Part shown: positions 26,081 through 61,184 of the stretch, one piece after another | Numbering within the stretch: position 1 is the stretch's first letter | Layout: each line of letters opens with the position of its first letter | Assembly: GCA_021790425.1 (NCBI GenBank) | Contig: JAJYEA010000001.1 | Span: 67,015 to 131,014 of the forward strand | Reading direction: 5' to 3' | DNA from: Thermoplasmata archaeon | Lineage (GTDB): Archaea > Thermoplasmatota > Thermoplasmata > Lutacidiplasmatales > UBA184 | Length of the DNA stretch: 64,000 bases | The notes under the pieces: generated by a model | Seen by the model: the letters and a program-made list of their open reading frames with translations, nothing else | Database searches by the model: none | What the model was told of the DNA's origin: nothing | Program-made: the position numbers and the translations under genes

Positions 26081-26206
26081 CGCATTGCTGAATGCTGAGG
26101 GCCCCCTTCGAAAGGAGCGGGAAGGACATGGGTTCCGGTAGCGGACTGGCGCGGCCGGTCGCACTCCGCCAACAAGCCGCTATGGGTATGATGGATGGTG
26201 AGGCGA

Positions 26207-29320: not shown

Positions 29321-29556
29321 AACCCAGCCCCTGACTATACCGGAGGACAGTAACGTGGGTCCGTATGTTGTCTTGAGCGATGAGGGTTATTGACCAGGGT
29401 GCGTGGCGCCCGCTTCCTTTGGCGACCGCGGGAATCACGAGACTACCGGGTCCGTGCTCTACCCGGAACACTTCCTCCGCTTCTGGATGGCTATTCGGCC
29501 AAATCCGACTCTATCCCTGACGTCACAGTCTGGTCCACGGGTGCTCGCACGAAGTG

Positions 29557-36442: not shown

Positions 36443-37861
36443 CTACTTCTTCCCCGCGGAAGCCACGACCGGCTTCGTGAGCTTGAGGAGCGCGGTCCGT
36501 CCGAGGAGCTCCTCCGCCTCGGCCTCCGTCAGGAGCTTCTCCCGGACGAGGTAGCTCTTCACGCTCTCCCCCTTGGCCATCGACTTCTTGATCGCCTCGG
36601 CCACCTTGAGGTAGCCGAGCTTCGGCGTCAGGATGGTCGCAAGCGAGGTGGAGGCGAGCAGGTAGGTCTCGCACCGCTCGCGGTTCGCGGTGATCCCGTC
36701 GACCGCCTTCCGGGCAAAGACCGGCAGGAAGTTCACGAGCATGGTGGCCGAGAAGAGGACCTCGAAGGACATCACCGGCATCATGACGTTGATCTCCATC
36801 TGGCCCGCCTCGGCGGCCATCATCGTGGCCGTGTCGGACCCGATGATGTGGTAGCAGATCTGGTTCAGGCACTCCGCCATCGACGGGTTGACCTTGGCGG
36901 GCATGATGGAGGACCCGGCCTGGACCTCGGGGAGGCGGAGCTCGTCAAGACCGCTCCCCGGACCCGAGGAAAGGAGCCGGAGGTCGTTCGAGACGCGCGA
37001 AAGCTCGACGGCCAGGGACCGCAGGAGCGAGGAGGCCGCGAGGGGGGCCCAGCGCGACTGCATGGTCTCGAAGGGGTCCCGCGAGACCGTGACCGCGTGG
37101 CCCGAGACCTTCGCCAGACGCGCGACCGACTTCTCCCGGTATCCGGGGAAGGTGTTGACGCCGGTGCCCACGGCGCTCCCGCCGAGGGCGACCTCCCCCA
37201 GGCCCTTCCGGACCTGCGGCAGGCCCTCCAGCACCCGCTCCAGGGCGCTGGCATACGCGCCGAACTCCTCGCCGAGCGTGACGGGCATGGCATCCTTGAG
37301 ATGGGTGCGGCCCGACTTCGCCACGTCGGCGAACTCGGCCTCCTTCTTCCGCAGGCTGCGGATCAGCACCTGGGTCGACTTCTCCACGTCATCCAGGGCA
37401 AGGAGGATCGAGAGGTTCAGGACCGTCGGGTAAGTGTCGTTCGTGGACTGGCCCCGGTTGACGTGGTCGTTCGGGGAGACGGTCTCGTACTCGCCCTTCT
37501 TATTCCCGAGCATCTCGAGCGCCCGGTTCGCGAGGATCTCGTTGACGTTCATGTTGGTCGACGTGCCCGCGCCGGCCTGGAAGACGTCCACGATCACGTG
37601 CTCGTGGAACTTCCCGTCCACGAGCTCCTGGGCCGCCTTCACGATGGCCGCCCCCTTCGCCTTGTCGAGCACGCCCTCCTCGATGTTCACCTCGGCGCAC
37701 GCGCGCTTGACGAGCCCGTAGGCCCGGATCAGGTAGGGCGAGACCCGCAGGCCGGTCACGGGGAAATTATCCCGGGCCCGCACCGACTGGACTCCGTAGT
37801 AGGCGTCATCCGGCACATCCATCTCCCCGAGCGAGTCCCGCTCCTTCCGCATCGCGGCCAT
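36443..37861 (-). CDS. aspartate ammonia-lyase / class II fumarate hydratase family protein (closer to AspA)
   Basis: GSSIMPAKVNPSMAE signature; QAGAGTSTNMNVNE; KGEYETVSPNDHVNRGQSTNDTYPT. ATG at 37861 or 37852. Confidence 0.85.
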   Translation of the reverse strand: MAAMRKERDSLGEMDVPDDAYYGVQSVRARDNFPVTGLRVSPYLIRAYGLVKRACAEVNIEEGVLDKAKGAAIVKAAQELVDGKFHEHVIVDVFQAGAGTSTNMNVNEILANRALEMLGNKKGEYETVSPNDHVNRGQSTNDTYPTVLNLSILLALDDVEKSTQVLIRSLRKKEAEFADVAKSGRTHLKDAMPVTLGEEFGAYASALERVLEGLPQVRKGLGEVALGGSAVGTGVNTFPGYREKSVARLAKVSGHAVTVSRDPFETMQSRWAPLAASSLLRSLAVELSRVSNDLRLLSSGPGSGLDELRLPEVQAGSSIMPAKVNPSMAECLNQICYHIIGSDTATMMAAEAGQMEINVMMPVMSFEVLFSATMLVNFLPVFARKAVDGITANRERCETYLLASTSLATILTPKLGYLKVAEAIKKSMAKGESVKSYLVREKLLTEAEAEELLGRTALLKLTKPVVASAGKK

Positions 37862-37970
37862 GGTTCCCCAAAGAAGCCCCAATCGCTCAGCTTGAAAGCC
37901 TTTCTCACGCGTGCCCGCCGGGGGGTTCGCCCGCCAGCGTCATACCCCGGGGTGCGCTGAGGGCAGGAGG

Positions 37971-44246: not shown

Positions 44247-44321
44247 GGGACTGTGGGGTAGCTTGGTCCATCCTATGGCGTTCGGGACGCTGTGACTCCG
44301 GTTCAAATCCGGACAGTCCCA
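44247..44321 (+). tRNA. tRNA-Pro (anticodon CGG)
   Basis: Hand-folded. Acceptor GGGACTG/CAGTCCC, U8, A14, G18G19, A21. Anticodon stem TGGCG/CGCTG (two G-U pairs) with loop TTCGGGA (U33, G37). T arm TCCGG-TTCAAAT-CCGGA. Discriminator A. Confidence 0.7.
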
Positions 44322-44343
44322 CTCCTCAGCCGCGATGGGTTCC

Positions 44344-45906
44344 CTACGCGTTGAGACGTCGGTGGAGCGCGACGTTCGCCGAGTGGAAGCGGAGGAAGCT
44401 CTCATAGAGGCGGTCGTAGACCGCCACGTTAATCCGGTTCGGTGCGAAGCGGGCCTGGACCCGGATGTCCCGCGCGATGCTCTCGGGTGAGCAGAACCGG
44501 CCCCCGATGGCACCGAGCAGGGCGGCCCCCCGGGCGGTGGCGTGGGCCGCGTCCTCCACGGTCTCCACGGTGCGACCGAGCACGTCGGATATGATCTGGG
44601 ACCACAGGGTGGAACTGGCCCCTCCGCCTCCGATGCGCACCGGATCGGCCCGACGTCCGCCGAGCTTCTCCACGGGGTCGAGGATCCACCGGTTGTTGTA
44701 CGCTACCCCTTCCATCACGGCCCGGAGCAGCTGGGGCCGGCCCGAGGCAAGACCCAGGTTGAAGAACGTCGCGCGCAGGTGACGGTCCTCGACGGGGGCG
44801 CGCTCCCCGTAGAGCCAGGGGGTGAAGAGCACGCCCCCCGACCCCGGTTCCGACTGGGCGGCCATCCGGTCGAGCTCCTCGAACGGAGGCGAGGAGGGCC
44901 CCGTCCCGAAGAGGAGATCGCGCACGAACGCGAGGGAGCTCCCGGCCGATTCCTGGGTCGCGATGATGCTGTAGAGCCCCGGGAGCGCGGATGGGAGGGA
45001 CGCGATGTTGTGGAAAATGTCCGTCTTCTTGAACGGCACGTGGGCGGTGAGCCAGGACGAGGTCCCGAGGTAGAGGTGGTGCTGACCCGGGCGGGTGCAG
45101 CCGGCACCGATGAGCGAGGCCTGCATGTCCCCGGCACCCGCCACCACCGGAAGGCCCTCCGGAACCCCTAGCTCCCGGGCGGCCTTTCCCGAGACCGGTC
45201 CCACGACCGCGGTCGCTGCCTTCAGGGGAGGGAACTTGGCGCGGTCCAGGGTCGCGAGGCGGAAGAGGGCTTCGTCGTAAGATACGTGGGAAGCGTCCCG
45301 GTTGTCCGTCACCCAGGTGACCGCCACGTTGTCCCAGGAGGCCGCGATCTCGCCGGTCAACCGGTAGTTGAGATAGTCCTTCGGTTCGAGGAAGAAGGAG
45401 GTGGCGCGGTAGACCTCGGGCTCGCGGTGCTTCAGGTAGAGGATGTGGGCGAGGGAGTCCTTGCCGGAGTGGGCCGGGGCCCCCCCCGTCTTGCGGAGCC
45501 AGCGGGCCAGCTTGTCGATCCGGTAGCCCGAGACCCCCGGGAAACCCGCGGTGAGCGCGCGGATGTACGGTTCGCCGCGGGTGTCCATCCAGATGATCGC
45601 GCGCCGGAGCGGAGCACCGTCCTTGCCCACCGCCACCGTCCCGGACCACTGGCCCGTGCATCCCGCCGTGGCGATACGGGCCGGGTCCGCTCCGCTCGAG
45701 CGGACCGCGCGAGCCGTCGCCGAGACGATGGCGCCCCACCATGCCTCGGGGTCCTGCTCCACGGTCCCTCCGGGACCCACGACCAGCGGGTAGGATGCGG
45801 TCTCCCGGGCCCGCAGGGCCCCGCTGGCCTCGCAGAGGACGACCTTGCACGACGAGGTCCCCAGATCGATGCCCAGGAAGAGCGGAGAGTCCTTCGACGA
45901 CGGCAC
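44344..45906 (-). CDS. FGGY-family carbohydrate kinase (xylulokinase/glycerol-kinase-like)
   Basis: N-terminal LFLGIDLGTSSCKVVL. FGGY N- and C-domains with GGGASS near the C-terminus. GTG start ~45906. The track's fused upstream extension is out of frame with the next gene. Confidence 0.8.
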   Translation of the reverse strand: MPSSKDSPLFLGIDLGTSSCKVVLCEASGALRARETASYPLVVGPGGTVEQDPEAWWGAIVSATARAVRSSGADPARIATAGCTGQWSGTVAVGKDGAPLRRAIIWMDTRGEPYIRALTAGFPGVSGYRIDKLARWLRKTGGAPAHSGKDSLAHILYLKHREPEVYRATSFFLEPKDYLNYRLTGEIAASWDNVAVTWVTDNRDASHVSYDEALFRLATLDRAKFPPLKAATAVVGPVSGKAARELGVPEGLPVVAGAGDMQASLIGAGCTRPGQHHLYLGTSSWLTAHVPFKKTDIFHNIASLPSALPGLYSIIATQESAGSSLAFVRDLLFGTGPSSPPFEELDRMAAQSEPGSGGVLFTPWLYGERAPVEDRHLRATFFNLGLASGRPQLLRAVMEGVAYNNRWILDPVEKLGGRRADPVRIGGGGASSTLWSQIISDVLGRTVETVEDAAHATARGAALLGAIGGRFCSPESIARDIRVQARFAPNRINVAVYDRLYESFLRFHSANVALHRRLNA

Positions 45907-45917
45907 GACCTTGCCTC

Positions 45918-47303
45918 TCAGGAGCCGTGGTACATCCAGTCGATGACCGAGGAAAGGAACTCTTCCACCGCGTCCGCGGGCATCGTCTCTGCCATCCCGT
46001 AGATCGGGGCCAGCCCCGCCGCCGCGGGCGCCCGCTCGGCCATGCGGACGGCCCAGCGGAGGTCCGTCAGGAACCGGGCGGACACCCCGGGGAGCGTGTG
46101 CCGGAGCGTGACGGCCAGATGGACCCCCGGAGGGTTCTGTAGCCCGTTGAGGAACCATCCCCGGCGCGACATCTGCTCCATGACCTGGTAGACGTCCATC
46201 CGCGGGGTCGTGAACGCCGCCACGATGGCGGAGTCCCCCATCAGCTCGACCCCCGGGATCTTCGCCGCCCCGGTGCGGATGCGTCGCGTCGTGGCCAGTA
46301 TCTTGCGGGCGATGGAACGGTAGCCATCGGCGCCGAGGGAAAGCATGGTCGCCCATGCCGCGGCCACGAGCCCGCCGGGGCGGCTCCCCGCGAGGGAGGT
46401 GGAGAAGTAGATGCCGCCGGGCCAACGGTTGGCCACGTAGTACTGCTTCCGGAGAAGGTCGGGATCGGAGTAGAGTATCGTGGAGATCCCCTTGGGCACG
46501 AAGCCGTACTTGTGAGGGTCGACCGAGATGGAGGTCACCCCGGGGAGCCGGAAATCGAAGTCCGGCACCGCGACGCCCAGCTCCCGCGCCCAGGGAAGGA
46601 TGAATCCGCCCAGGCAGGCATCGGTGTGGAACCCCACCCCCTGGTCGTGCGCCACCTCGGACATCGCCCGGATGGGGTCGACCACGCCGTACGGAAAGCA
46701 CGGGGCGGACCCGACGACCGCGACGGTGCGGGGTCCGATGGCCGACTTCACCGACTCCATGTCGGCCGCAAGGTCGGCACCGACGGGCACGGTCTTGGCC
46801 CGGATGCCGAAGTAGTGGCAGGCCTTGTCGAAGGCCACGTGGGCCGTGACCGGGAGCACCACCTCGGGCTCGGTGATCCCACGCTTCTCCCGTCCCCAGT
46901 CCCGGTAGGCCTTCATCGCGAGCAGGATGCTCTCCGTGCCGCCGGAGCTCACCGCGCCGCGGACGGAGTCGCCGCCACCGAGGAGGGCCGAGGTCATCGC
47001 GACGATTTCACCTTCCATCTTCACGAGGCTCGGCCAGACATCGGGATGGAGGGGGTTCGTCTGGGACGCGAGCGCGTAGGCCTGCGTCGCGAACCGCGTG
47101 TGGGCGGGTTCCCCATGATAGACCGCGCCTGACACGTACCCCTTCTTCCACCGCCCCTCCTCTTCGCGGAGGAGCCGGGTGAGGAGCGCGAGCACCTCCC
47201 GCTGGTTCGCACCGCGCGCGGGGAGTTTCCGGATCGGGGGGAATGTCTGGTCGTAGGGGCGGAAACGCTCCTGGACCACCGAGAGAAGTTCCTCCAGATC
47301 CAT
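45918..47303 (-). CDS. PLP-dependent group II decarboxylase-fold enzyme, sphingosine-1-phosphate-lyase-like
   Basis: PLP-Lys motif SISVDPHKYGFVPKGISTILYSD resembles SPL-family SISADTHKYGYAPKG. GYVSGAVYHGE also present. ~460 aa. ATG at 47303 (MDLEELL) or 47327. Confidence 0.75.
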   Translation of the reverse strand: MDLEELLSVVQERFRPYDQTFPPIRKLPARGANQREVLALLTRLLREEEGRWKKGYVSGAVYHGEPAHTRFATQAYALASQTNPLHPDVWPSLVKMEGEIVAMTSALLGGGDSVRGAVSSGGTESILLAMKAYRDWGREKRGITEPEVVLPVTAHVAFDKACHYFGIRAKTVPVGADLAADMESVKSAIGPRTVAVVGSAPCFPYGVVDPIRAMSEVAHDQGVGFHTDACLGGFILPWARELGVAVPDFDFRLPGVTSISVDPHKYGFVPKGISTILYSDPDLLRKQYYVANRWPGGIYFSTSLAGSRPGGLVAAAWATMLSLGADGYRSIARKILATTRRIRTGAAKIPGVELMGDSAIVAAFTTPRMDVYQVMEQMSRRGWFLNGLQNPPGVHLAVTLRHTLPGVSARFLTDLRWAVRMAERAPAAAGLAPIYGMAETMPADAVEEFLSSVIDWMYHGS

Positions 47304-47319
47304 CGCTGCTGGCGAGCCG

Positions 47320-47332
47320 GAATTCATATAGA
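47320..47332. promoter_or_regulatory. shared TATA (ttcatatagaacc) between divergent decarboxylase and MFS genes
   Basis: ~25 nt from ATG 47303 (minus strand) and ~27 nt from GTG 47355 (plus strand). Confidence 0.4.
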
Positions 47333-47354
47333 ACCATTGCGCTCTCGTAGCTTT

Positions 47355-48539
47355 GTGGGGGAGTCCGGACCGAAGGGAAAGCCCGACGCCTACCGGTGGG
47401 TGGTCCTCTCCGCCTTCATGGGCCCGAGCATCGTCGCCCAGATGCTCTGGATCACCTTCGCAGCGCTACCCACCTGCTCCACGGCGGTGCTCTGCCCCAC
47501 CGGAGCCAACGAGACCTGGCTCACCGCGATCTACCCGTTCGTCTTCTTCGTCATCTCGATCCCGGTGGGCTACCTGGTCGACCTCCGGGGCTTCCGGAGC
47601 CCGGTCATCGTGGGAGCGGCGCTCCTCGCCGCCTCCGGGCTCCTGCGCCCCTTCGCTCCCACGTTCCCGCTCCTGCTCGCCGTGCAGGGAGTGGGGGCGG
47701 TCGGTCAGCCCTTCATCCTGAACAGCATCTCCAAGCTCGTCCGGGGGTGGTTCCCGGCGTCCGAGGTCGCCACCGCGACGGGAGTCGGGACCCTTTCCAT
47801 CTTCATCGGGATCGCCCTGGGACTGGGTCTCACCCCCGTGCTCGCCGAGGGGTGGGGCATCCCAGCGATGTTCGAACTGTACGGCGTGATCGCCCTCCTG
47901 GCCTTCCTCCTCTTCGCCGCGGTCGCGCGGGACCCGCCGGGGGCCCGGCCCCGCGAAGCGCCCCCAACGCTGCGCGCGATCGTGGGGATGCTCCGGGTGC
48001 GCAACATCGTCCTGCTCTCGGCCCTCTTCTTCGCGGGGATCGGGATCTTCAACTCGTTCGCCACGTACGTCGAGCCGATGCTGGAGGCGCGGTCGGTGCC
48101 CCTCGACCTCGCCGGGATCCTGGGCGGCGGGATGATCCTGGGAGGGATCGTCGGCGCCGTGGTGCTCAGCGTGGTCTCGGACCGTTACCACACGCTCCGT
48201 ACCCCCCTGCTGGCCGCGCTCGGGGTCTCCGCCATCCTGTGGGCGCTCCTGGGGATCGTGAGCGGGACGGTTCCGGAACTCCTGGTGCTCATCGCGGTAG
48301 GATTCTGCTTCATGGCGACACTCCCGCTCGGGCTCGAGCTCGCGGCCCGGAGCGTGCCCCCCTCCTCCGAGGGGGCCGCGAATGCCCTCGTGTGGGAGTT
48401 CTCCCAGATCGGAGGGACCGTCCTCATCTTCGTCTTTGAAGGGGTCGGCCAGGGGTTCGGCTGGACGCCCACGTTCTTCCTGGCCGCCGTGATGGTGGCG
48501 GTCATGTTGGTGCTCGGGCTCGCGACCGTCGACAAGTAG
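47355..48539 (+). CDS. MFS-family transporter
   Basis: 12 TM helices. Probable leaderless GTG start at 47355; alternative ATG at 47418. Confidence 0.75.
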   Translation: MGESGPKGKPDAYRWVVLSAFMGPSIVAQMLWITFAALPTCSTAVLCPTGANETWLTAIYPFVFFVISIPVGYLVDLRGFRSPVIVGAALLAASGLLRPFAPTFPLLLAVQGVGAVGQPFILNSISKLVRGWFPASEVATATGVGTLSIFIGIALGLGLTPVLAEGWGIPAMFELYGVIALLAFLLFAAVARDPPGARPREAPPTLRAIVGMLRVRNIVLLSALFFAGIGIFNSFATYVEPMLEARSVPLDLAGILGGGMILGGIVGAVVLSVVSDRYHTLRTPLLAALGVSAILWALLGIVSGTVPELLVLIAVGFCFMATLPLGLELAARSVPPSSEGAANALVWEFSQIGGTVLIFVFEGVGQGFGWTPTFFLAAVMVAVMLVLGLATVDK

Positions 48540-48609: not shown

Positions 48610-51558
48610 TTGTCTTGGCATGTACCGCTGCCGCGGGGGAAGAAGACTGAGTCGAACGTGTGGACCATCGGACTGGCCTTGGTGTTGCTCGCCTCACCCA
48701 TGGCCATCCTCGCCCATGCCCAACCTGCCCCGTCCTCCTCTCAGGCAAGAGGGGTGACGGCTGCCGGTTCGGCCGGGCGGGTCTCTGCGGCTCCGAACGG
48801 CGCTTCCCCGCGGGCCCCCGCGGCCACCCTGAGCGGCATCGATGTCTCGGGCTACCAGGGCGCGAGCATCAACTGGGCCTCGGTCAAGTCGGCCGGGAAC
48901 AGCTTCGCCTTCGCCCGCGCGGTCGAGTACTACGGTGTCTCGGACACGGATTTCGCCACGAACATGGCGAACGGCAAGGCGGCCGGAGTCTACATGGGCG
49001 CCTACGACTTCGTCTACCCGTCCAGCGAGTCGTCGACCTCCGACGCCGACTATTTCAACAGCATCATCAAGCCCTATGTCGCGTCGGGATACATGTACCC
49101 CGCGCTCGACCTAGAAAAGGACTGCTCCGCCTCCGGGGGAACGATGAGCGCATCCCAGATCACCACATGGGTGAACGGCTGGGGAACGGAGCTCGAGGCC
49201 GACCTCGCGACGGACGGCTTCCCGGGCGTCCACCCGATCGTCTACATGAACTCGAACTACGCCAACAACTGCATCGTGGCCTCCTCGTGGGGGGGCTGGA
49301 GCCTGTGGATCGCCGAGTACTACAACACGTGCGCCACCTCCCCGGCACCGAACACCGGGGTGTTCAGCACCTACGCTTTCTGGCAATGGTGCAGCACGGG
49401 AAGCTCCGGCGGGATCAGCCCCGTTGACCAGGACGTGTTCAACGGGGGCCTCTCCCAGCTCCAGGGCGGGTATCTCTTCGGCCTCTCCGTCTCCTACGCG
49501 ATGAAGGACCTGACGACCAATACGGTCCTCTACTGCGGTGGGTCTTTCCTGACCGGGGACAATATCCAGTTCACGGGCTCCGCCACCGGAGGGAGCGGCA
49601 CGTACACCTACGCCTGGAAGTTCGGGGACGGGTCGACGGGATCGGGGAACCCCGCCACCCACGTCTATTCGGCCACCGGGACGGTCGACCCCATGCTGAC
49701 CGTGACGGATTCGAACGGTGCGTCGGCGACCACCGGGAGCGGATGTTCGTTCACCGTGAACGCAGGGCTGTCGGTCTCCACCCCGCTTTCTGCCTCGCCG
49801 AACCCCGTCGTGATCTACAACTCCACCACCTTCACGGTCACCGCGTCGGGGGGAACCAGCCCCTATTCGTACTCCTATTCGGGACTCCCGGGTGGGTGCA
49901 TCTCGGGCAGCACCAACAGCCTGGGATGCACCCCTTCGGTCGCGGGCGCCTTTCCCGTGAAAGTCACTGTCACCGACGCCGCCGGACGTACTGCGACCTC
50001 CTCCACCACGCTCACCGTGACCGCGCCCGCACTGGTGGCGGGACCCCTGACGGCCACCCCTGCGACCATCGTGCTCAACGGCACCACGAACCTCTCGATC
50101 ACCGTCTCCGGAGGGGTTCCGCCGTATTCGTATGCCTACTCGGGTCTCCCTTCGGGATGTGCCTCCTCGAACGTCTCGCTCCTGGCGTGCACCCCGACCC
50201 AGACGGGAACGTTCACGGTATCCGTGACGGTGAGCGACCGGGCGGCGCAGACCCAGCAGGCGAACACCACGTTGACCGTGGTGGCCTCCGCGCTCATCGT
50301 TGGACCGCTCGTGGCCAGTCCGCCCACCGTGGCCGCCAACACCACCACGAACTTGTCGGTCCTGGCCTCCGGAGGGGTTCCTCCCTACACGTACGTCTAC
50401 GCCGGCCTGCCCCCCGGGTGCCTCTCGTCCAATGCCTCGTCCGTCCCCTGCCAGCCCACGGTACCCGGCACGTTCAATGTCTCGGTGACCGTGAGCGACC
50501 GGAGCGGGCAGACGCAGACCGCGAACACCACGGTGATCGTCACCCCCGATGCGCTCGCGATCACCTCGTTCGCGGCAACGCCTTCCCGGATCCTCCTCGG
50601 CAACAACACCACCCTCGCGGGCGCTACCTCGGGAGGGATCGGGCCTTACACGTATGTCTACGGAGGGCTCCCGAACGGATGCTCCTCGGTCAACGCGACC
50701 CTTCTGCTCTGCACACCGGTGGCGTTCGGATCGTTCAATGTCACCTGGACGGTGACGGATGGGCAAGGGGCGTCCCAAGAGGCCTGGACGATCCTGACGG
50801 TGACGGAGGGGGTGGTCGTCACGGGATTCAGTATCCAGCCGTCCCCCCTCGCCTATGGGAACGTCACCCAGCTCCGGGTAACGGTCCAGAACGGGACGCC
50901 GCCCTATGCGTACGCCTACAGGGGACTGCCCACCGGATGTACCTCCAAGGACGCCTCCAACTTCAGCTGCACGCCTTTGGAGCTCGGCACCTTCAACGTG
51001 ACCGTCGTGGTCCAGGACGCGAACCATCTCGAGGGGGTGGGCACCGCTCGGCTGGTCGTCGTCGGGGCGCTCGTGCTCACGGGCTTTGTGGCGTCGCCCG
51101 CGGTCGTGACCCTCGGGAACAGCTCCACCCTCACCGTGACGGTCGCGGGAGGGGCTCCGCCGTACTCCTACACCTACTCGGGCCTGCCGGAGGGATGCGC
51201 GACCGAGAGCACCGGCACGCTACCCTGCAAGCCCACGGTCACGGGGAACTTCTCGATCATCGTCTCCGTGGCGGACACCTCGGGATCCGACGCGCACCGT
51301 TCCCTGGTGCTCCAGGTCGTCTCGCCGCCCCCCCCGACCCACACGACCTCCCCTACGAGCGGGCTCCCGGGGGGCCTCCCGATCGCCACCCTTGCCCTCC
51401 TCGGGGTTCTCGTTGCAACGCTCGTGGTGGGAGCGATACTCATCGTGCACCGTCGCCGGAAGAGGTCCGAGGCCCCCCCGCCCGCTTGGACCCCGGCGGA
51501 GGCACCGGCGGGGGTGGAGGGCGCCCCGATGACCGGCAGCGATTTCCCTCCCCCGTAG
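48610..51558 (+). CDS. membrane-anchored surface protein: signal peptide, GH25 muramidase (lysozyme) domain, PKD domain, 6 x ~90-aa two-Cys Ig-like repeats, C-terminal TM
   Basis: GH25 consensus GIDVSGYQGASINWASVKSAGNSFAFARAVEYYGVSDTDFATNMANGKAAGVYMGAYDFVYP. PKD signature YAWKFGDGSTGSG..THVY. Repeats of the form ..SGG.PPYSY.YSGLP.GC.S.N.S...CTP...G.F.V.VTV.D. C-terminal helix LLGVLVATLVVGAILIV plus HRRRKR. TTG start with a signal-peptide-like N-terminus; alternative GTG at 48658. Confidence 0.8.
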   Translation: MSWHVPLPRGKKTESNVWTIGLALVLLASPMAILAHAQPAPSSSQARGVTAAGSAGRVSAAPNGASPRAPAATLSGIDVSGYQGASINWASVKSAGNSFAFARAVEYYGVSDTDFATNMANGKAAGVYMGAYDFVYPSSESSTSDADYFNSIIKPYVASGYMYPALDLEKDCSASGGTMSASQITTWVNGWGTELEADLATDGFPGVHPIVYMNSNYANNCIVASSWGGWSLWIAEYYNTCATSPAPNTGVFSTYAFWQWCSTGSSGGISPVDQDVFNGGLSQLQGGYLFGLSVSYAMKDLTTNTVLYCGGSFLTGDNIQFTGSATGGSGTYTYAWKFGDGSTGSGNPATHVYSATGTVDPMLTVTDSNGASATTGSGCSFTVNAGLSVSTPLSASPNPVVIYNSTTFTVTASGGTSPYSYSYSGLPGGCISGSTNSLGCTPSVAGAFPVKVTVTDAAGRTATSSTTLTVTAPALVAGPLTATPATIVLNGTTNLSITVSGGVPPYSYAYSGLPSGCASSNVSLLACTPTQTGTFTVSVTVSDRAAQTQQANTTLTVVASALIVGPLVASPPTVAANTTTNLSVLASGGVPPYTYVYAGLPPGCLSSNASSVPCQPTVPGTFNVSVTVSDRSGQTQTANTTVIVTPDALAITSFAATPSRILLGNNTTLAGATSGGIGPYTYVYGGLPNGCSSVNATLLLCTPVAFGSFNVTWTVTDGQGASQEAWTILTVTEGVVVTGFSIQPSPLAYGNVTQLRVTVQNGTPPYAYAYRGLPTGCTSKDASNFSCTPLELGTFNVTVVVQDANHLEGVGTARLVVVGALVLTGFVASPAVVTLGNSSTLTVTVAGGAPPYSYTYSGLPEGCATESTGTLPCKPTVTGNFSIIVSVADTSGSDAHRSLVLQVVSPPPPTHTTSPTSGLPGGLPIATLALLGVLVATLVVGAILIVHRRRKRSEAPPPAWTPAEAPAGVEGAPMTGSDFPPP

Positions 51559-51710: not shown

Positions 51711-54700
51711 GTGTCCGGCGGTGGTTGCCGAGGCATAGCACGGATATCTTCATTACCCCGACGGGCTCTTGCCTCGCTCGTGCGCTGGACCCGACCCACG
51801 CTGGCGTTGGTGCTCACGGCGATCTTGGTGGCAGGGTTCCTGGCCATCCCGGGAGCTCCCGGTGACATGGAGCACGGGGCGGCCCAGCTCTCGGCCGGGC
51901 TCCTTACGATGCTCCCAGCGTTCGAGTCCATCTACCCGGGCGCCCGAGACCTCGGAGCGGTTGCCCCGTCCACCCCGATGACGGTCGGCCTGGCCCTCTC
52001 TCCCAACGACCCCCGCGCGCTCGACGCGTACGTGTATGCCGAGTACACCCCCGGGTCCCCCGCCTACGGTCACGAGCTCAACCCGCAGAAGTTCCAGACG
52101 TACTTCTCCCCCTCCGCAGCGGACTACCGCGCGGTGCAGAGCTACTACGCGGCCTACGGGCTCTCGACGATCACGACCCCCGACCGGCTGATGATCGGCC
52201 TCACCGGGACGGCGGGTCACATTTCGAATGCCTTCCACACGAGCTTCCACCGCTTCCAGTTGACCGACGGGGCCGACGTCTACGGGGCCTCCCAATCGGT
52301 GGTGGTTCCGGCAGGGCTGTCGATCGACGGGGTCACCGGGATGACGAACGCCTGGGGTCCCCGACCGACCGATATCAACCCCGGGCAGGTCGAGGCCGCC
52401 GCGGCGGGCTGGGCCCACAGCGAGAAGACGGCCACGCCGGGAACATGGACATGCACCTCCGGCACGCAAGGGTGTGACGAGCCCGGCTACTACGGCGAGT
52501 ATCCCCTCTTCAACGCAGGGGATACCGGCCAGGGTGTCAACGTGGGGATCGTCGACGCCTACGACAGTGCCGAGACCCAGTCCCAGCTCCTGAGCTCCGA
52601 GCAGAGCTTCGCGAGCGGGGCAGGGCTGCCCGCGCCGCACGAGAACTTCTGGTACCCGATCCCGGGTGCGGGCAACCTGAACACCTCCGCGAGCAGCGGA
52701 TGGGCAGGGGAGACCGACCTCGACCAGCACATGGCCTTCATGGACGCTCCCGGGGCCAACATCGATGTCACGTTCGCTTCCGACAGCTCCTTCGCGGTCT
52801 ACGAGGCCGTGGACTTCCTGGTGGCCCACAACCTGACCCAGACCATCTCGATGTCGTGGGGCGAGTCCGATGTGGGGAACATGCAGGCGCCTCCCCAGGG
52901 TCCGTGCATGCCCTACTACAGCTGCAACGCGTCGTATGACGGCTCCTACGCCTTCCTTCACCCCGTGTTCGCGGAGGCCGTGGCCGAGGGGATCACCCCC
53001 TTCGCGGCCGCCGGGGACTGTGGCGCGGCGGACGGCACTTACACGGTCGCGACGGACTACCCTTCGAGCGACCCCTTCGTGGTGGGCGTGGGAGGCACCC
53101 AGCTGAACGGCAGCGGCTCCACCTATGCGGGGGAGACGGGATGGAGCGGCAACGGCACGGGATGCACCGCGAACACCGGGGGCGGGGGCGGAGGCTACGC
53201 GCCCTGGGCCCAGCCCTGGTGGCAGCACGGCCCGGGCCAGCTCACCCACCACCTCCGGGGAGTACCGGACGTCAGCGCGGACTCGGCGGACGGGACCAGC
53301 CAGGCGTCCCCGATGTGGGCCGGCTGGGTCGCCGTGGCCGACCAGATCCACGGAGGGGGGCTCGGGCTCATCGGCCCCTCGATGTACAACATCCTGAGCA
53401 ACGCCACGGAATACGCGGCCGACTTCCACGACATCAAGACCGGGAACAACGGGTACGCCGCGGGCACCGGTTGGGACCCCATCACGGGGATCGGGACCCC
53501 CGTCACTGGCGCGCTCTTGCCGGCGCTGGGCCGCTACCTGCCGCCCGTCCACGGGTCCTTGAACGTCTCCCTCGCGGCCACGCCGACCTCGGGCTCCGCG
53601 CCCCTGTCCGTCACGTTCACCGCCTCTGCGAGCGGAGGCACCCCTCCCTACTGGTACGACTTCGTGCCCGGGCTGTACCTGGGCCAAGTCTCGAACACCC
53701 CGTCCATCACCTACCCGTACGCCTCGGCCGGACCGTACTACGCGACGGTCGTCGCGTGGGATGCCGCGGGCAACTCCTCCATCTCCAACCCGGTCCTCGT
53801 CCACGTCGGCGACTCCGCGTTGACGGCGACGCTCGCGGCCTCCGCGACCCACGTTCTGGTCGGGCAGACCGTCACCTTCACGGGAGGGGCGAGCGGCGGG
53901 ACGGCACCGTACCAGTTCACGTACTTCTACGGGGACGGCACCTACGGATACAACCGGAGCACGAGCGCGACGCACGCCTACCTCTCTCCGGGCACCTACT
54001 GCGCCTACGCCTTCGTGACGGATGGGGCGGCCACGCAGAACGGCGGTGTCACGAACCCGGTCTGCGTCACGGCGAGCTATTCCTCAGGGTCGGGTCCCAC
54101 GATCTCCTCCTTCACGGCCTCCCCTTCCACCATCACCGTCGGCGGCACGACCTACCTCAACGTCTCCGCCTCCGGCGGGACGGGACCCCTCGCCTACGCC
54201 TACTCCGGCCTTCCCGCCCCCTGCGCGAGCTCCAACTCCAGCGCCATCACGTGCACCCCTTCCGCCGTGGGCGGTCCCTACTCCATCACGGTGACCGTCA
54301 GCGACAGTGCCTCTCCCCGTCACACCACCAGCGCCACGACCTCCTTCACGGTCACCTCGACCGGAGGCACGGGACCGACCATCTCCACCTTCACCGCGAG
54401 CCCCTCCTCCATCCCCGCGGGGGGCACGACCTACCTCAACGTCACCGCCTCGGGAGGCGTCGGCCCGCTGACCTACGCCTACTCCGGCCTTCCCACTCCC
54501 TGCGCGAGCTCCAACTCGAGCTCGATCACCTGCGCCCCCGCTTCCTCGGGAGGGCCGTACACCATCACCGCGACGGTCTCCGACTCGGCCCCGTCTCCCC
54601 ACTCCACCTCTGCCACCACCTCCTTCACCGTCACCCCGAGTGGAGGGACGGGACCGACCATCTCCTCCTTCACCGCGAGCCCGGCCTCTATCCCCGCGGG

Positions 54701-55958
54701 GGGCACCACCTACCTCAACGTCACCGCCTCGGGAGGCGTCGGACCCCTGAGCTACGCTTACTCCGGGCTCCCCGCTCCCTGCGCGAGCTCCAACTCCAGT
54801 TCGATCACCTGCGCCCCCACCTCCTCGGGCGGTCCGTACACCATCACCGTGACGGTCAAGGATTCGGCCTCGACTCCCCGCTCCACCTCTGCCACCACCT
54901 CCTTCACCGTCACCCCGAGCGGAGGGACGGGACCGACCATCTCCTCCTTCACCGCGAGCCCCTCCTCCATCCCCGCGGGAGGGACGACCTACCTCAACGT
55001 CACCGCCTCGGGAGGCGTCGGGCCCCTGAGCTACTCGTACTCCGGACTTCCCGCCCCCTGCACCAGCACCAATGCGAGCAGGATCACGTGCGCCCCCACC
55101 TCCTCGGGCGGTCCGTACACCATCACCGCGACGGTCAAGGATTCGGCGTCCTCGCCCCACACGACCGCCGCCACCGCCACGTTCACGGTCACCCCGGCCC
55201 CGCTCGCGATCAGCAGCCTCACCGCATCCCCCGCATCGATCCCCTCGGGAGGAACCACGTTCCTGAACGTGACCGCCACGGGGGGGTACCCCGCCTACAC
55301 CTACCTGTACAACGGCCTGCCTTCGGACTGCGCTTCCGCGAACGCGTCCACCCTGACGTGCTCCAGCATCCTGGCCGGCACCTATGATGTCACGGTCAAG
55401 GTCACCGACACCGCATCGAACTCGGCGACCCGGTCGGCCCCCTTCACCGTGCAACCGTCGGTGGCGAGCAAGCCGGTCGTGAGCCAGTTCTACGCTTCGC
55501 CCAGCCCGCTTGCCCTCGGAGGACAAACCACCTTCTACGTGTCCGCCACCGGAGGGGCTCCGCCCTACACCTACAGCTATGTGGGACTTCCCACGGGATG
55601 CTCCAGCTCGAACTCGGGATCCCTCTCGTGCACCCCGACCGGCACGGGGACGTTCAACGTCACCGTCACCGTGACGGACACCCGAGGTCAATCGGCCCTG
55701 GCGAACACCTCGGTCGTCGTCACGGCGGCACCGAGCTCGGGACCGGGGTCGACCGGGATCCTGTCGGGTTGGTCGCTCTGGATCCTGCTCGCGGTCGTCG
55801 TGGTCGCGGTGGTCATCGCCGCCGTCCTCGTTTCACGCCGACGCAAGGGACCCGGGAACGCCACCCCTCCCGGGTATCTGCCCCCGGGAGCGACCTCCGC
55901 GAGCCCGCCCTGGCAGGCGCCTCCGGGGGCTCCTCCGCCAGCCCCCTGGCAGGAGTAG
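51711..55958 (+). CDS. membrane-anchored surface protease: pro-kumamolisin-like propeptide, sedolisin (S53) domain, PKD domain, 6 x ~93-aa two-Cys Ig-like repeats, C-terminal TM
   Basis: GWAGETDLDQHMAF and GTSQASPMWAG S53 motifs. PKD signature YFYGDGTYGYN..THAY. Repeats of the form GPTISSFTASP..GGTTYLNVTASGGVGPLSYAYSGLPAPCASSNSS.ITCAP. C-terminal helix LWILLAVVVVAVVIAAVLV plus SRRRK. GTG at 51711; alternative GTG at 51777 (MRWTRPTLALVLTAILVAGFLAI), with an AT-rich box ~30 nt upstream. Confidence 0.8.
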   Translation: MSGGGCRGIARISSLPRRALASLVRWTRPTLALVLTAILVAGFLAIPGAPGDMEHGAAQLSAGLLTMLPAFESIYPGARDLGAVAPSTPMTVGLALSPNDPRALDAYVYAEYTPGSPAYGHELNPQKFQTYFSPSAADYRAVQSYYAAYGLSTITTPDRLMIGLTGTAGHISNAFHTSFHRFQLTDGADVYGASQSVVVPAGLSIDGVTGMTNAWGPRPTDINPGQVEAAAAGWAHSEKTATPGTWTCTSGTQGCDEPGYYGEYPLFNAGDTGQGVNVGIVDAYDSAETQSQLLSSEQSFASGAGLPAPHENFWYPIPGAGNLNTSASSGWAGETDLDQHMAFMDAPGANIDVTFASDSSFAVYEAVDFLVAHNLTQTISMSWGESDVGNMQAPPQGPCMPYYSCNASYDGSYAFLHPVFAEAVAEGITPFAAAGDCGAADGTYTVATDYPSSDPFVVGVGGTQLNGSGSTYAGETGWSGNGTGCTANTGGGGGGYAPWAQPWWQHGPGQLTHHLRGVPDVSADSADGTSQASPMWAGWVAVADQIHGGGLGLIGPSMYNILSNATEYAADFHDIKTGNNGYAAGTGWDPITGIGTPVTGALLPALGRYLPPVHGSLNVSLAATPTSGSAPLSVTFTASASGGTPPYWYDFVPGLYLGQVSNTPSITYPYASAGPYYATVVAWDAAGNSSISNPVLVHVGDSALTATLAASATHVLVGQTVTFTGGASGGTAPYQFTYFYGDGTYGYNRSTSATHAYLSPGTYCAYAFVTDGAATQNGGVTNPVCVTASYSSGSGPTISSFTASPSTITVGGTTYLNVSASGGTGPLAYAYSGLPAPCASSNSSAITCTPSAVGGPYSITVTVSDSASPRHTTSATTSFTVTSTGGTGPTISTFTASPSSIPAGGTTYLNVTASGGVGPLTYAYSGLPTPCASSNSSSITCAPASSGGPYTITATVSDSAPSPHSTSATTSFTVTPSGGTGPTISSFTASPASIPAGGTTYLNVTASGGVGPLSYAYSGLPAPCASSNSSSITCAPTSSGGPYTITVTVKDSASTPRSTSATTSFTVTPSGGTGPTISSFTASPSSIPAGGTTYLNVTASGGVGPLSYSYSGLPAPCTSTNASRITCAPTSSGGPYTITATVKDSASSPHTTAATATFTVTPAPLAISSLTASPASIPSGGTTFLNVTATGGYPAYTYLYNGLPSDCASANASTLTCSSILAGTYDVTVKVTDTASNSATRSAPFTVQPSVASKPVVSQFYASPSPLALGGQTTFYVSATGGAPPYTYSYVGLPTGCSSSNSGSLSCTPTGTGTFNVTVTVTDTRGQSALANTSVVVTAAPSSGPGSTGILSGWSLWILLAVVVVAVVIAAVLVSRRRKGPGNATPPGYLPPGATSASPPWQAPPGAPPPAPWQE
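54080..55200. repeat. tandem 279-bp near-identical coding repeats (4 copies) in the second S53 gene
   Basis: gggacgggaccgaccatctcc(t/a)ccttcaccgcgagccc recurs at ~54377, ~54656 and ~54935. Confidence 0.75.
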
Positions 55959-56090: not shown

Positions 56091-56684
56091 ATGAGCGCCA
56101 GACCGGTAGCCCTACCGGGGGGCCATGGACTCTACGAAGTACGATTCCACGGACGCGGAGGGCAGGGGACGGTCATCGCGTCCACGCTCCTGGCGGAAGC
56201 TGCCTTCCTCGAAGGCCGGGACGTGCAGGCCTTCCCCTTCTTCGGTGTCGAGCGCCGGGGAGCGCCCGTGCTGGCGCACACCCGGATCGGGGAGGGACAG
56301 ATCCGGCTGGCCACCTCGGTCCGCTATCCGGACGCGATCATCGTGATGGACCCCACGCTCGTGCGGCCGGGCAGCCCGATCTTCGCGAGCCTTCGCGCGG
56401 GTGGGGACGTCCTGGTCAACACCGTGCGGCCCCCTCGGGAGCTTCAACTGGCCGTGGACGGCCACCTGGCCTCCGTGGACGCCGTGAGCGTCGCGATCCG
56501 TCACGGGCTGGGGTCGCGGGCGAACCCGATCGTGAACACGGTCATCCTGGGAGCCTTTGCGAAGCTCACCCACGTGGTGGAACTCTCCTCGCTCGAGGAG
56601 GCCATCCGGCAGAAGGTGCCCTCCCACACCGATGCGAACATCGCGGCCGCGCGTGAGGCCTACGGGCTCGTGGAGGCCGCATGA
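56091..56684 (+). CDS. porG: pyruvate/2-ketoisovalerate:ferredoxin oxidoreductase gamma subunit
   Basis: YEVRFHGRGGQGTVIAS...FPFFGVERRGAPV. Confidence 0.9.
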   Translation: MSARPVALPGGHGLYEVRFHGRGGQGTVIASTLLAEAAFLEGRDVQAFPFFGVERRGAPVLAHTRIGEGQIRLATSVRYPDAIIVMDPTLVRPGSPIFASLRAGGDVLVNTVRPPRELQLAVDGHLASVDAVSVAIRHGLGSRANPIVNTVILGAFAKLTHVVELSSLEEAIRQKVPSHTDANIAAAREAYGLVEAA

Positions 56685-56953
56685 CGACCCTCGCCGGGCG
56701 CGATCTCATCGGGCCCATGGCGTGGATGTCCAGCGAGCCGGGTTCCACGGCCGCCTCGTGGCGGACCCAGCGCCCGCAGCTTGACACGGCCAAGTGCACG
56801 GGATGCATGGTCTGCTGGAAGTTCTGCCCGGACACGGCGATCGCCCCGGAAGGGAAGAAGGTCGCGTTCGACTTCAACCTCTGCAAGGGATGCGGCGTCT
56901 GTGCCCAGGTCTGCGCACCGAAGGCCATCGACATGCTCCCGGAGGGCCTCTGA
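56681..56953 (+). CDS. porD: pyruvate:ferredoxin oxidoreductase delta subunit (2 x [4Fe-4S] ferredoxin)
   Basis: CTGCMVCWKFCP and CKGCGVCAQVCAP. Start overlaps the porG stop (ATGA). Confidence 0.9.
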   Translation: MTTLAGRDLIGPMAWMSSEPGSTAASWRTQRPQLDTAKCTGCMVCWKFCPDTAIAPEGKKVAFDFNLCKGCGVCAQVCAPKAIDMLPEGL

Positions 56954-58125
56954 TGACGCGGCATCTCCTGTCGGGGAATCAGGCCGTCGGCGAGGCGGTG
57001 CGCCTGGCACGGGCCCAGGTGGTGGCCGCCTACCCGATCACCCCCCAGACCACGATCGTCGAGCATCTGGCCGAGGCCGTCGGGAAGGGAGACCTCCTGG
57101 CGGACTTCATCACGGTCGAGAGCGAGCACTCGGCGATGGCGGCCTCCGTGGGCGCGTCGATCGCCGGGGCCCGCGCCTTCACCGCCACCTCGAGCCAGGG
57201 TCTCGCGCTCATGCACGAGATGCTCCACTGGGCGTCCGGCCAGCGGACCCCCGTCGTCATGGCGAACGTGAACCGCGCGCTCGCCCCCCCGTGGAACATC
57301 TGGGTGGACCACTCGGACTCGATGGCCCAGCGCGACACCGGCTGGATCCAGGTCTACGCGGAGACGAACCAGGAGGTCCTCGACACGATCCTCCAGGTCT
57401 ACCGGTTGGCCGAGGACAAGCGGGTCATGGTGCCCGCGATGGTCATGCTCGATGCCTTCTCGCTGTCGCACACGTACATGCCGGTCGACGTCCCGGAGTC
57501 GGACGTGATCGACCGCTACCTTCCCCCGTACTCCCCTCCCCAGAAGGTGCTGCCCGAGACCACGCAGCTCTTCGGGTCCTTCTCGCCCCCGGAGCTTTGC
57601 TACATGGAGCTCCGCCACGACCTCGAGGTCGCGATGCACCAGGCCCGGATACTCCTGCCCCAGGTGGAGGAGGAGTACACCCAGCTCACCGGACACCCGT
57701 CCTTCGGCGCCGTGGACGAGTACCGGACCGACGACGCGGAGGTGGTGCTGATGGCCATGGGCTCGCTCGCGGCCACCGCACGCGACGCGGTCGACGCCCT
57801 GCGCCGGGAAGGCAAGAAGGTGGGGCTCGCACGGATGCGGCTCTTCCGGCCCTTCCCCGCGGATGCGGTCCGATCGCTCGGGGAGCGATTCCACCGGATC
57901 GCGGTGCTCGACCGGGCCGTGTCCTACGGGTCCGGAGGACCGCTGGCGGGCGAGGTGCGCGCCGCACTCCTCGGGATCGCCGACCCGCCCGTTCTCGCCG
58001 CCTACATCGCCGGCCTCGGCGGGCGCGAGGTCACCCAGGAGCAGATCCGCTCGATCTTCGAGCGGCTGCTGAGCGGCAACGGTCTCCCCTCGGAAGAGTG
58101 GGTCGGACTGAAGGTGGAGGGGTAA
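56953..58125 (+). CDS. porA: pyruvate:ferredoxin oxidoreductase alpha subunit
   Basis: GNQAVGEAVRLARAQVVAAYPITPQT. TGATG overlap with porD. GGAGGG RBS. Confidence 0.9.
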   Translation: MTRHLLSGNQAVGEAVRLARAQVVAAYPITPQTTIVEHLAEAVGKGDLLADFITVESEHSAMAASVGASIAGARAFTATSSQGLALMHEMLHWASGQRTPVVMANVNRALAPPWNIWVDHSDSMAQRDTGWIQVYAETNQEVLDTILQVYRLAEDKRVMVPAMVMLDAFSLSHTYMPVDVPESDVIDRYLPPYSPPQKVLPETTQLFGSFSPPELCYMELRHDLEVAMHQARILLPQVEEEYTQLTGHPSFGAVDEYRTDDAEVVLMAMGSLAATARDAVDALRREGKKVGLARMRLFRPFPADAVRSLGERFHRIAVLDRAVSYGSGGPLAGEVRAALLGIADPPVLAAYIAGLGGREVTQEQIRSIFERLLSGNGLPSEEWVGLKVEG

Positions 58126-59144: not shown

Positions 59145-60188
59145 ATGCCCGAACGGGGGGGACCAACCCAGGAGACGATGCTGCGGGCCCTGAAGCTGAT
59201 GGTGACGGGCCGCGTGGCCGACGAGCGGAGCGTGAACCTGCAGCGCCAGGGACGGATCGGTTTCTATGTCCAGATGGACGGGCAGGAAGCGGCCCAGGTC
59301 GGATGCGGGCTCGCCCTGGAGCCGGAGGACTGGGTGGTCCCGGCCTACCGGGAGCTCGGCGTGGCGCTCGCGCGGGGGGTCCCGCTCCAGACGCTCTTCG
59401 ACCAGTTCTACGCCAACTCCAACGATGAGAACAAGGGACGCCAGATGCCCACCCACTACGGCTACCGGGCGTACCGCTACGTGACCGCCTCGAGCCCGGT
59501 GGGTACCCAGATCATCCACGCGGTGGGCCTCGGCATGGCGGCCCGCTACAAGGGGGAGAAGTCCGTGACGGTCCCCTTCTTCGGGGATGGCGCGACCAGC
59601 TCGAGCGACTTCCACGCGGGGCTCAACTTCGCGGGGGTCTACAACGCCCCGGTCGTCTTCTTCTGCCAGAACAACGGGTGGGCCATCTCGCTCCCGCGGG
59701 AGAAGCAGACCCGGTCGAAGACGCTCGCCGGGAAGGCCGAGGCCTACGGCATCCGCGGCGTCCAGGTCGACGGGAACGACTTCGCCGCCGTCTACCGCGT
59801 GGTGCAGGAGGCGCGGGAACGGGCGGTCTCCGGAGAGGGGCCCACGCTCGTGGAGGCGTTGACCTACCGCATGGGTTCCCACTCCACCTCGGACGATCCC
59901 ACGCGCTATCGTTCTACGGCCGAGGTGGCGTCGTGGAAGCAGAAGGACCCGATCGAGCGGCTCGCGCGCGACCTCATCGCGCGCGGGTGGATCACGGAGG
60001 ACCAGTTCGAGGCCCTTCAGGAGGCCGCCCGGGCCGAGGTCCAGGCCGCCATCCAGACGGCCGAACAGACCCCGCCGACGTCGCCCGACACGCTCTTCAC
60101 CGACGTCTTCAAGAGCAATCCCAGTTACGTCGAGGAGCAGAGGGCCGAGCTGAGCGAACTCGTGCGGGAGGGAGTGGTGAAGCCATGA
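59145..60188 (+). CDS. 2-oxoacid (branched-chain/pyruvate) dehydrogenase E1 component alpha subunit (TPP)
   Basis: GDGATSSSDFHAGLNFAGVYNAPVVFFCQNNGWAIS TPP motif. YRxGxHSTSDDP phosphorylation-loop-like region. AT-rich box (gtcataaagcc) ~28 nt upstream of the ATG. Confidence 0.9.
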   Translation: MPERGGPTQETMLRALKLMVTGRVADERSVNLQRQGRIGFYVQMDGQEAAQVGCGLALEPEDWVVPAYRELGVALARGVPLQTLFDQFYANSNDENKGRQMPTHYGYRAYRYVTASSPVGTQIIHAVGLGMAARYKGEKSVTVPFFGDGATSSSDFHAGLNFAGVYNAPVVFFCQNNGWAISLPREKQTRSKTLAGKAEAYGIRGVQVDGNDFAAVYRVVQEARERAVSGEGPTLVEALTYRMGSHSTSDDPTRYRSTAEVASWKQKDPIERLARDLIARGWITEDQFEALQEAARAEVQAAIQTAEQTPPTSPDTLFTDVFKSNPSYVEEQRAELSELVREGVVKP

Positions 60189-61165: not shown

Positions 61166-61184
61166 GGTCGCGGGGGCTTGAACC

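Follow-up and report, generated by a model that had tools for sequence, protein, structure and literature searches.

A conserved cassette of a sphingosine-1-phosphate lyase-type enzyme, an FGGY-family kinase and an FLVCR-like permease in a Thermoplasmata archaeon: a putative route for the breakdown of sphingoid bases or other amino-diols

A stretch of 64,000 nucleotides (nt) from a Thermoplasmata archaeon (GenBank assembly GCA_021790425.1, contig JAJYEA010000001.1, positions 67,015 to 131,014; this whole stretch is called the window below) carries three adjacent genes, which encode a pyridoxal phosphate (PLP)-dependent enzyme of the sphingosine-1-phosphate lyase (SPL; EC 4.1.2.27-type) family, a kinase of the FGGY family and a transporter of the major facilitator superfamily (MFS) related to the FLVCR proteins. 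The three genes probably constitute a cassette for the catabolism or salvage of a 2-amino-1,3-diol, most likely a long- or medium-chain sphingoid-type base, a reading that we hold with moderate confidence. We consider the chances evenly divided that the FGGY clade of this kinase is the missing prokaryotic kinase of sphingoid bases, or more broadly of 2-amino-1,3-diols, and that it forms with the SPL orthologue an undescribed sphingolipid-degradation cassette.

Prokaryotic sphingosine-1-phosphate (S1P) lyases have been crystallized and are used as therapeutic reagents. We know of no bacterial or archaeal sphingoid-base kinase that feeds them, and literature searches found none. A linkage of FGGY kinase and SPL genes, with or without a gene for an FLVCR-like permease, was likewise not found in a literature search that left most subscription journals outside its reach. 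An earlier note, made from the letters of the window alone, had recognized the lyase and the kinase as a pair; the divergently transcribed transporter gene was missed in it.

The lyase and the kinase

The open reading frame (ORF) of the lyase (45918 to 47327, minus strand) specifies 469 amino acids when read from its first ATG and 461 when read from the ATG at 47303 (MDLEELL). The latter codon, also the start adopted in the earlier note, was taken as the start because the closest archaeal homologues are nearly all 458 to 463 residues long, mostly 461, and because a TATA-like element lies some 25 nt upstream of it; the TGA stop is at 45920-45918. The PLP-binding lysine is K265 in the 461-residue numbering (codon 46509-46511) and lies in the motif SISVDPHKYGFVPKG. 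Comparison with all solved structures gave the highest score for the SPL of Symbiobacterium thermophilum, StSPL (PDB 3mad; E value 5e-158), followed by the SPLs of human and B. pseudomallei (357 bits each), yeast Dpl1 (329 bits) and the Legionella SPL (227 bits), while the solved structures of the archaeal decarboxylase MfnA scored only 104-107 bits and glutamate decarboxylases (GAD) at most 74 bits. The protein is 52.7 % identical to StSPL and 40.9 % identical to human SPL. Among the NCBIfam models the best match is the MfnA equivalog TIGR03812, as NCBIfam has no SPL model, and the score of 223.7 bits stays below the cut-off of 299.4.

The residues of StSPL that bind PLP (K311, H310, G168, T169, D274, H201, and S353) and those that contact the phosphate and head group of the substrate (A103, Y105, N126, H129, K317, and again S353) have been listed in a structural review (PMC10243590). 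The window lyase has the identical residue at all 12 positions; its PLP site is made up of K265, H264, G122, T123, D228, H155, and S307 and the phosphate site of A60, Y62, N83, H86, and K271. Ten of the 12 are invariant in 86 relatives, the remaining two being the positions of A103 (85/86) and T169 (84/86). Four positions at the entrance of the substrate channel, defined here as those at which the PDB sequences of wild-type StSPL and of the engineered surrogate 5eud differ, are F, I, F, and L in the window lyase and are hydrophobic throughout the clade, a statement that covers these four positions only. Two of them set the archaeal enzyme apart from StSPL, which has Y249 and L344 where the window lyase has F and I.

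By all these comparisons the lyase is a member of the SPL subfamily and not an MfnA/GAD-type decarboxylase: the bit scores, the MfnA score below its cut-off, the SPL residues and the sequence identities settle the question. MfnA and the window lyase are both fold-type I enzymes of the group II decarboxylase superfamily, yet MfnA is shorter (approximately 375-400 residues), and the window lyase has the phosphate-binding residues of SPL. The earlier note had argued for the SPL subfamily from the PLP-lysine motif and a length of about 460 residues, and the placement holds. The window lyase is thus, as judged from its sequence, a new archaeal member of the family and probably an orthologue of StSPL. 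Neither enzyme has an N-terminal transmembrane helix. The window lyase differs from StSPL in its archaeal host, in an N-terminus that is about 40 residues shorter than that of the deposited chain, and in the lack of the proline-rich "Nt-FLEX". The N-terminal extension of the bacterial lyases of approximately 500 residues was uninformative; it contains no transmembrane helix and looks amphipathic and basic. The archaeal origin of the DNA, also put forward in the earlier note, is borne out by an Alba gene, an S13-S4-S11-RpoD cluster and an archaeal-type TIM gene in the window and by nearest homologues in Thermoplasmata metagenome-assembled genomes (MAGs).

The kinase gene starts with the GTG at 45906, a short distance behind the lyase stop, and ends at 44344. 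The operon-like arrangement with a GTG-initiated kinase gene had been described correctly before, except that the spacer, GAGGCAAGGTC, is 11 and not 12 nt long; it contains a GAGG element resembling a Shine-Dalgarno sequence. The Pfam domains FGGY_N (134.2 bits) and FGGY_C (97.7 bits) were both found above their cut-offs and are the only ones, a DAGK_cat domain not being detected with Pfam. A database protein 97 % identical to the kinase has the same length of 520 residues. Its best solved relative is the xylulokinase XylB of E. coli (PDB 2ITM), with 153 bits only. The two proteins share the full-length two-domain FGGY fold, the phosphate-binding motifs and the catalytic aspartate, which is D260 in the window kinase (codon 45127-45129), aligns with D233 of XylB and is conserved in at least 95 % of the clade. 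The folds of the cassette proteins are settled by their sequence identity to solved structures.

Five specificity-determining positions have been described for the FGGY family, which in GlpK are R83, E84, Y135, D245, and F270; XylB-I enzymes carry M-H at the first two (Zhang et al., PMC3245297). In the window kinase these two positions are occupied by W87 and S88 (codons 45643-45648), as opposed to M77 and H78 in XylB and R-E in GlpK, and members of its clade have W in 65 and S in 63 of 72 cases. According to our reading of the alignment around the GTS motif, position 5 is occupied by W285, which is invariant in the clade and corresponds to V258 of XylB. The clade is further marked by a conserved segment of its own, W136...T140-G-G-x-P144...G148-K149...H154, and by the conserved residues H277, Y279, H289, Y312, Q318, E319, W364, and W407. 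None of the nine catalogued FGGY specificities corresponds to this signature. The XylB equivalog model TIGR01312 gave 289.3 bits, below its cut-off of 380.25. On the strength of this score, together with W-S and W instead of M-H and V, the kinase is classified here as not being a xylulokinase; by the same kind of comparison it belongs to an FGGY subfamily that has so far gone undescribed. The genomic partner differs as well, being a PLP lyase for the window kinase and a xylose isomerase for XylB.

Conservation of the gene pair and the third gene

A scan of one genome per species revealed relatives of the lyase in at least 590 species, and the best 80 of these loci were examined. An orthologue of the kinase, detected by tblastn with the window kinase, was present within 1 kb of the lyase gene in 71 of them. 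In seven of the nine loci without a hit, the contig stops at the place expected for the kinase gene; without these, the pair is present in 71 of 73 informative species loci, the two true exceptions without an FGGY kinase being L049 and L076. The kinase orthologues are mostly 41-68 % identical to the query; in L084, L089 and a fragment at a contig end in L070, identity is 33-36 %. Archaeal carriers were found in Thermoplasmata, in another lineage of the Thermoplasmatota and in a Thermoprotei MAG. The bacterial carriers belong to Anaerolineae and other Chloroflexota, Myxococcota, Desulfobacterota, Spirochaetota, Actinomycetota, Planctomycetota, Bacteroidota, Clostridiales, and Symbiobacterium. 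The pair thus occurs in more than ten phyla and in both gene orders, with overlapping or abutting coding regions. In the Symbiobacterium locus, the kinase gene immediately follows that of a lyase 83 % identical to StSPL. The genes for MFS protein, lyase and FGGY kinase lie together in each of the three archaeal loci with lyases 70, 67, and 52 % identical to that of the window, and the lyase-kinase pair also occurs, in either order, in Roseiflexus, a Promineifilum-like contig and a third bacterial contig. When the comparison was reversed, all three kinases that had been chosen independently of the lyase turned out to be encoded in operons of MFS, lyase and kinase genes that overlap or abut one another.

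A neighbour-joining tree places the archaeal lyases together. The order lyase-kinase is common to the archaea and the group of Actinomycetota, Clostridiales, and Symbiobacterium, and most other bacteria have the kinase gene first. The pairwise identities of lyases and kinases are correlated (r = 0.73). The pairing of the two genes is not due to chance. The idea of a kinase acting ahead of the lyase, which the earlier note had put forward, gains from this conservation, and the two outcomes that the note had named as speaking against it are not what was found: the lyase falls with the SPLs and not with MfnA or GAD, and its partner is conserved.

When all ORFs of at least 120 codons from 85 loci were clustered, the only recurrent clusters were the lyase, the kinase, the antisense shadow ORFs of these two and the MFS protein; no recurrent Spt, ceramide synthase, aldehyde dehydrogenase, phosphatase or regulator gene was present among the neighbours. 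A comparison of the window with the related Thermoplasmata loci revealed no synteny outside the three genes. As no other gene is consistently linked and synteny stops at the three genes, the cassette itself is the unit of inheritance, and bacteria and archaea appear to have exchanged it horizontally. Its flanking genes are different ones in each of the related Thermoplasmata loci, and in the window a tRNA-Pro(CGG) gene identified with ARAGORN (44247-44322, plus strand) lies 21 nt past the kinase stop and separates the cassette from the convergent TIM gene. In view of these two observations, insertion of the cassette next to a tRNA gene is conceivable. A HAD phosphatase gene near the cassette in some Thermoplasmata loci was not counted as a member, since its best match is MtnX-like and no homologue is located near the cassette of the window.

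The MFS gene is transcribed divergently from that of the lyase. Its ORF begins with the TTG at 47337, and the GTG at 47355, in the same frame, could plausibly serve as a leaderless start. The AT-rich, TATA-like element ATTCATATAGAA (approximately 47322-47333) is situated about 25 nt from the lyase ATG and about 27 nt from this GTG, an arrangement that suggests one shared bidirectional archaeal promoter giving leaderless transcripts in both directions. A scan of the region for bacterial sigma-70 promoters and terminators yielded nothing useful, as expected for an archaeal host. The best solved relatives of the MFS protein are FLVCR2 (72.6 bits, E value 4.5e-19) and FLVCR1 (56.7 bits), with which it can be aligned over its full length. 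Both are uniporters of choline and ethanolamine, in which W102 and Y325 make cation-pi contacts with the amine and Q191 and Q447 bond the hydroxyl group (PMC11168923). Four of the five ligand-site residues of FLVCR2 (W102, Q191, F324, and Q447) are conserved in the window protein, in which the tryptophan is W38 (codon 47448-47450), and Y325 is replaced by asparagine. In a set of 16 cassette-linked MFS proteins, 27-64 % identical to that of the window, the tryptophan and the first glutamine never vary, the position of F324 is taken by F or Y and that of Q447 by Q or N, and all 16 have N, D, or S in place of Y325. The replacement suggests a ligand different from that of the FLVCRs, for example one with an extra hydroxyl group or a primary amine. 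As overall identity is low, the function of the FLVCRs cannot be transferred directly to these prokaryotic proteins. From the conserved tryptophan and glutamine residues, the permease looks built for an amino alcohol, not necessarily ethanolamine. An MFS orthologue adjoins the lyase gene in every archaeal locus, and others are present in operons of the Actinomycetota type and of Clostridiales, where they are co-directional with the lyase gene and abut it. The MFS gene belongs to the cassette as its third component.

The two exceptional loci differ from each other. In L076, from a member of the Neomarinimicrobiota, the place of the FGGY kinase is taken by a gene for a kinase with DAGK_cat and YegS_C domains (4940-5872), the stop of which overlaps the start of the lyase gene. 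Every curated match of this protein is a lipid or diacylglycerol kinase, and sphingosine kinase 1 is among its solved relatives. The same arrangement recurs in 13 of 13 related metagenome loci (L092-L107) in which the DNA reaches far enough upstream to reveal the adjacent gene. Such a replacement by a kinase of the DAGK type favours a sphingoid-type long-chain base as the substrate, and the Marinimicrobia gene could be a candidate for a bacterial sphingoid-base kinase of the eukaryote-like family. More distant SPL-like proteins (L110, L113), which are 41-43 % identical to the lyase of L076, were placed outside the cassette family because they have no kinase partner. In L049, from the bacterial MAG OS_PC, the lyase gene is followed (7407-10840) by genes for an ACT protein, a glutamine-synthetase-like enzyme near gamma-glutamylputrescine synthetase, a C26 gamma-glutamyl hydrolase-like enzyme and an SDR protein. 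By analogy, these genes resemble a Puu-like gamma-glutamyl-amine route and may process an ethanolamine-type product.

Proposed pathway and other explanations

The FLVCR-like permease would import an amino alcohol, after which the FGGY-family kinase would phosphorylate the C1 hydroxyl of the 2-amino-1,3-diol with ATP. The SPL orthologue would then bind the C2 amine as an external aldimine and break the C2-C3 bond in a retro-aldol cleavage, and the presumed products, phosphoethanolamine and an aldehyde, would enter general metabolism. The flow through the cassette would accordingly be degradative. What the sequences establish is which three genes are present, that their active-site and ligand residues are conserved and that the genes stay linked; flux direction, the hydroxyl that is phosphorylated and the chain length of the substrate are deduced. 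The logic would be analogous to that of the eukaryotic route of SphK/Lcb4 and SPL/Dpl1, in which phosphorylation at C1 is followed by PLP-dependent C2-C3 cleavage, with a kinase that is not homologous: the enzyme of the cassette belongs to the FGGY (ASKHA) proteins and the eukaryotic one to the DAGK_cat type, which among the cassettes is seen only in the Marinimicrobia variant. Also unlike the eukaryotic route, the cassette lyase is soluble, without a transmembrane anchor, and the genes lie in an operon with a permease gene.

The likeliest substrates would be sphingoid-type long-chain bases, such as sphinganine, sphingosine or phytosphingosine-like compounds, released from bacterial or eukaryotic biomass. 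An outside source is assumed, since synthesis of sphingoid bases by the archaeon itself is not expected; no Spt-like gene was seen in the 64 kb of the window. Spt-like genes have been predicted in several bacterial phyla, and no archaeal MAG had Spt (PMC11334938); the bacterial carriers of the cassette overlap the phyla that were predicted in that study to make sphingolipids. StSPL cleaves S1P both in vitro and in blood, and its natural role, called unknown by the authors, was thought by them to be probably the catabolism of environmental sphingolipids (PMC3148216). The earlier note had taken the lack of archaeal sphingolipids to point to some other phosphorylated amino alcohol or polyol. This step is unsupported as it was stated: scavenged sphingoid bases are at least as likely, because many bacterial phyla share the cassette, the lyase is orthologous to StSPL, and a DAGK/YegS-type enzyme replaces the kinase in one lineage.

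Several points weigh against a sphingoid base as the substrate. To our knowledge, the FGGY family has no member with a lipid substrate. Since all nine catalogued specificities are for water-soluble sugars and polyols (PMC3245297), such a substrate would be unprecedented for an FGGY kinase. The closest characterized relatives of the transporter carry very small amino alcohols and would equally suit a short hydrophilic amino-diol. Neither an aldehyde dehydrogenase gene nor any other gene of lipid catabolism is consistently linked to the cassette. StSPL is the only enzyme of the cassette that has been assayed, and its own natural substrate is unknown (PMC3148216). The displacement of the FGGY kinase by a DAGK-type enzyme, moreover, counts as one evolutionary event, confined to one lineage.

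A rather less probable, though serious, explanation, and the one preferred in the earlier note, keeps import, phosphorylation at C1 and SPL-type cleavage and assigns to them a small hydrophilic amino-diol or amino-polyol, for instance serinol, threoninol, 2-amino-butanetriol or a 2-amino-2-deoxy-alditol. The soluble substrates of the known FGGY kinases and the likeness of the permease to FLVCR1 and FLVCR2, with its ligand-site tryptophan and glutamine, would agree with such a compound, as would the polar residues conserved specifically in the kinase clade, among which are H154, H277, H289, Q318, E319, N404, and R390, and the fact that archaea are not known to make sphingolipids. It is, however, a long-chain substrate, S1P, that the orthologous StSPL cleaves, and the four channel-entrance positions have been kept hydrophobic. 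The enzyme that replaces the kinase in Marinimicrobia is from a lipid-kinase family, and cleavage of serinol phosphate would release formaldehyde. Finally, we are aware of no hydrophilic 2-amino-1,3-diol that is abundant in nature and could account for a cassette found in at least 590 species genomes.

It is improbable that lyase and kinase do not catalyze consecutive steps. The lyase might supply phosphoethanolamine or an aldehyde for use elsewhere while a sugar-like product or an unrelated sugar serves as the kinase substrate; alternatively, the two enzymes might be an anabolic pair that condenses phosphoethanolamine with an aldehyde. The nearest characterized relatives of the kinase are indeed xylulokinases, and the link between the two proteins comes from gene data and not from an enzyme assay. 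Against this stand the linkage across phyla in both orders, the overlapping or abutting genes and the co-divergence of the two proteins. The conserved phosphate site implies that the lyase needs a phosphorylated substrate, and the kinase is the only conserved partner that could supply one; in Marinimicrobia, a kinase of an unrelated family occupies the same position. That the lyase is an MfnA/GAD-type amino-acid decarboxylase, forming for example beta-alanine or tyramine, next to an ordinary xylulokinase placed there by chance, as the best NCBIfam match and the public annotations ("glutamate/tyrosine decarboxylase-like" and "xylulokinase") would have it, is contradicted by the scores of both proteins below the respective cut-offs, the complete set of SPL phosphate-site residues, the missing XylB signature, the absence of a xylose isomerase gene nearby and the linkage in nearly all informative loci, and deserves hardly any credence.

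If the cassette acts on a sphingoid base or another amino-diol as proposed, its kinase would be the first FGGY member that acts on an amino alcohol or a lipid, a new substrate class for the family. Thousands of annotations as "xylulokinase" or "glutamate/tyrosine decarboxylase-like" would have to be corrected, and the natural role of StSPL would be explained, giving prokaryotic SPLs a physiological context and a kinase candidate that can be tested. The cassette would be widespread, with the FLVCR-like importer included in archaea, Actinomycetota, and Firmicutes of the Clostridiales type, and prokaryotic homologues of the carriers that transport choline and ethanolamine in humans would also gain a defined physiological context. 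Thermoplasmata archaea would consume the sphingoid bases of other organisms and so degrade a lipid class that is not their own, and the genes could serve as a marker for the turnover of sphingolipids or amino-diols in sediments and soils.

Features and surroundings of the window

Table 1 Features of the cassette and of its intergenic regions (positions of the window)
Feature	Position	Strand	Basis
FGGY-family kinase, uncharacterized subfamily, 520 aa; putative amino-diol/sphingoid-base C1 kinase	44344..45906	-	Pfam FGGY_N + FGGY_C
11-nt spacer from lyase stop to kinase GTG	45907..45917	-	Sequence read directly
SPL-family PLP-dependent lyase, 461 aa	45918..47303	-	530 bits to StSPL (3mad)
Short divergent intergenic region with one TATA-like element	47304..47354		Sequence read directly
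MFS transporter, FLVCR/SLC49 type, putative amino-alcohol importer	47337..48539	+	Pfam MFS_1, 131 bits

Directly downstream of the MFS gene, a gene at 48610-51558 (plus strand) encodes a secreted-looking protein of 982 residues, in which a GH25 muramidase (lysozyme) domain at the N-terminus is joined by PKD-type repeats and a hydrophobic anchor at the C-terminus. A GH25 hydrolase of bacterial walls would suit an archaeon that feeds on bacterial biomass. Two further large proteins, of 1518 (9660-14216, minus strand) and 1415 residues (51711-55958, plus strand), combine a pro-kumamolisin (sedolisin) activation domain with many PKD/Ig-like repeats, in which the unit GG.PPY.Y.Y.GLP.GC recurs, and look like extracellular proteases.

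With Rfam at the gathering threshold, only a tRNA-Leu gene (23484-23568) was detected. The region from 26000 to 30000 has a GC content of 0.59-0.61, compared with about 0.68 elsewhere in the window, and may be foreign DNA; it holds an ORF of 1037 codons (26207-29320, minus strand) with NHL/YNCE beta-propeller repeats. An ADP-forming acyl-CoA synthetase, two sets of 2-oxoacid:ferredoxin oxidoreductase genes and the E1 and E2 components of a 2-oxoacid dehydrogenase are encoded at 18265-23205, 56091-58125, and 59145-63562, and aconitase and fumarase at 6873-9560 and 36443-37882, respectively. The metabolic genes of the window are the typical repertoire of heterotrophic Thermoplasmata that degrade amino acids and organic acids.

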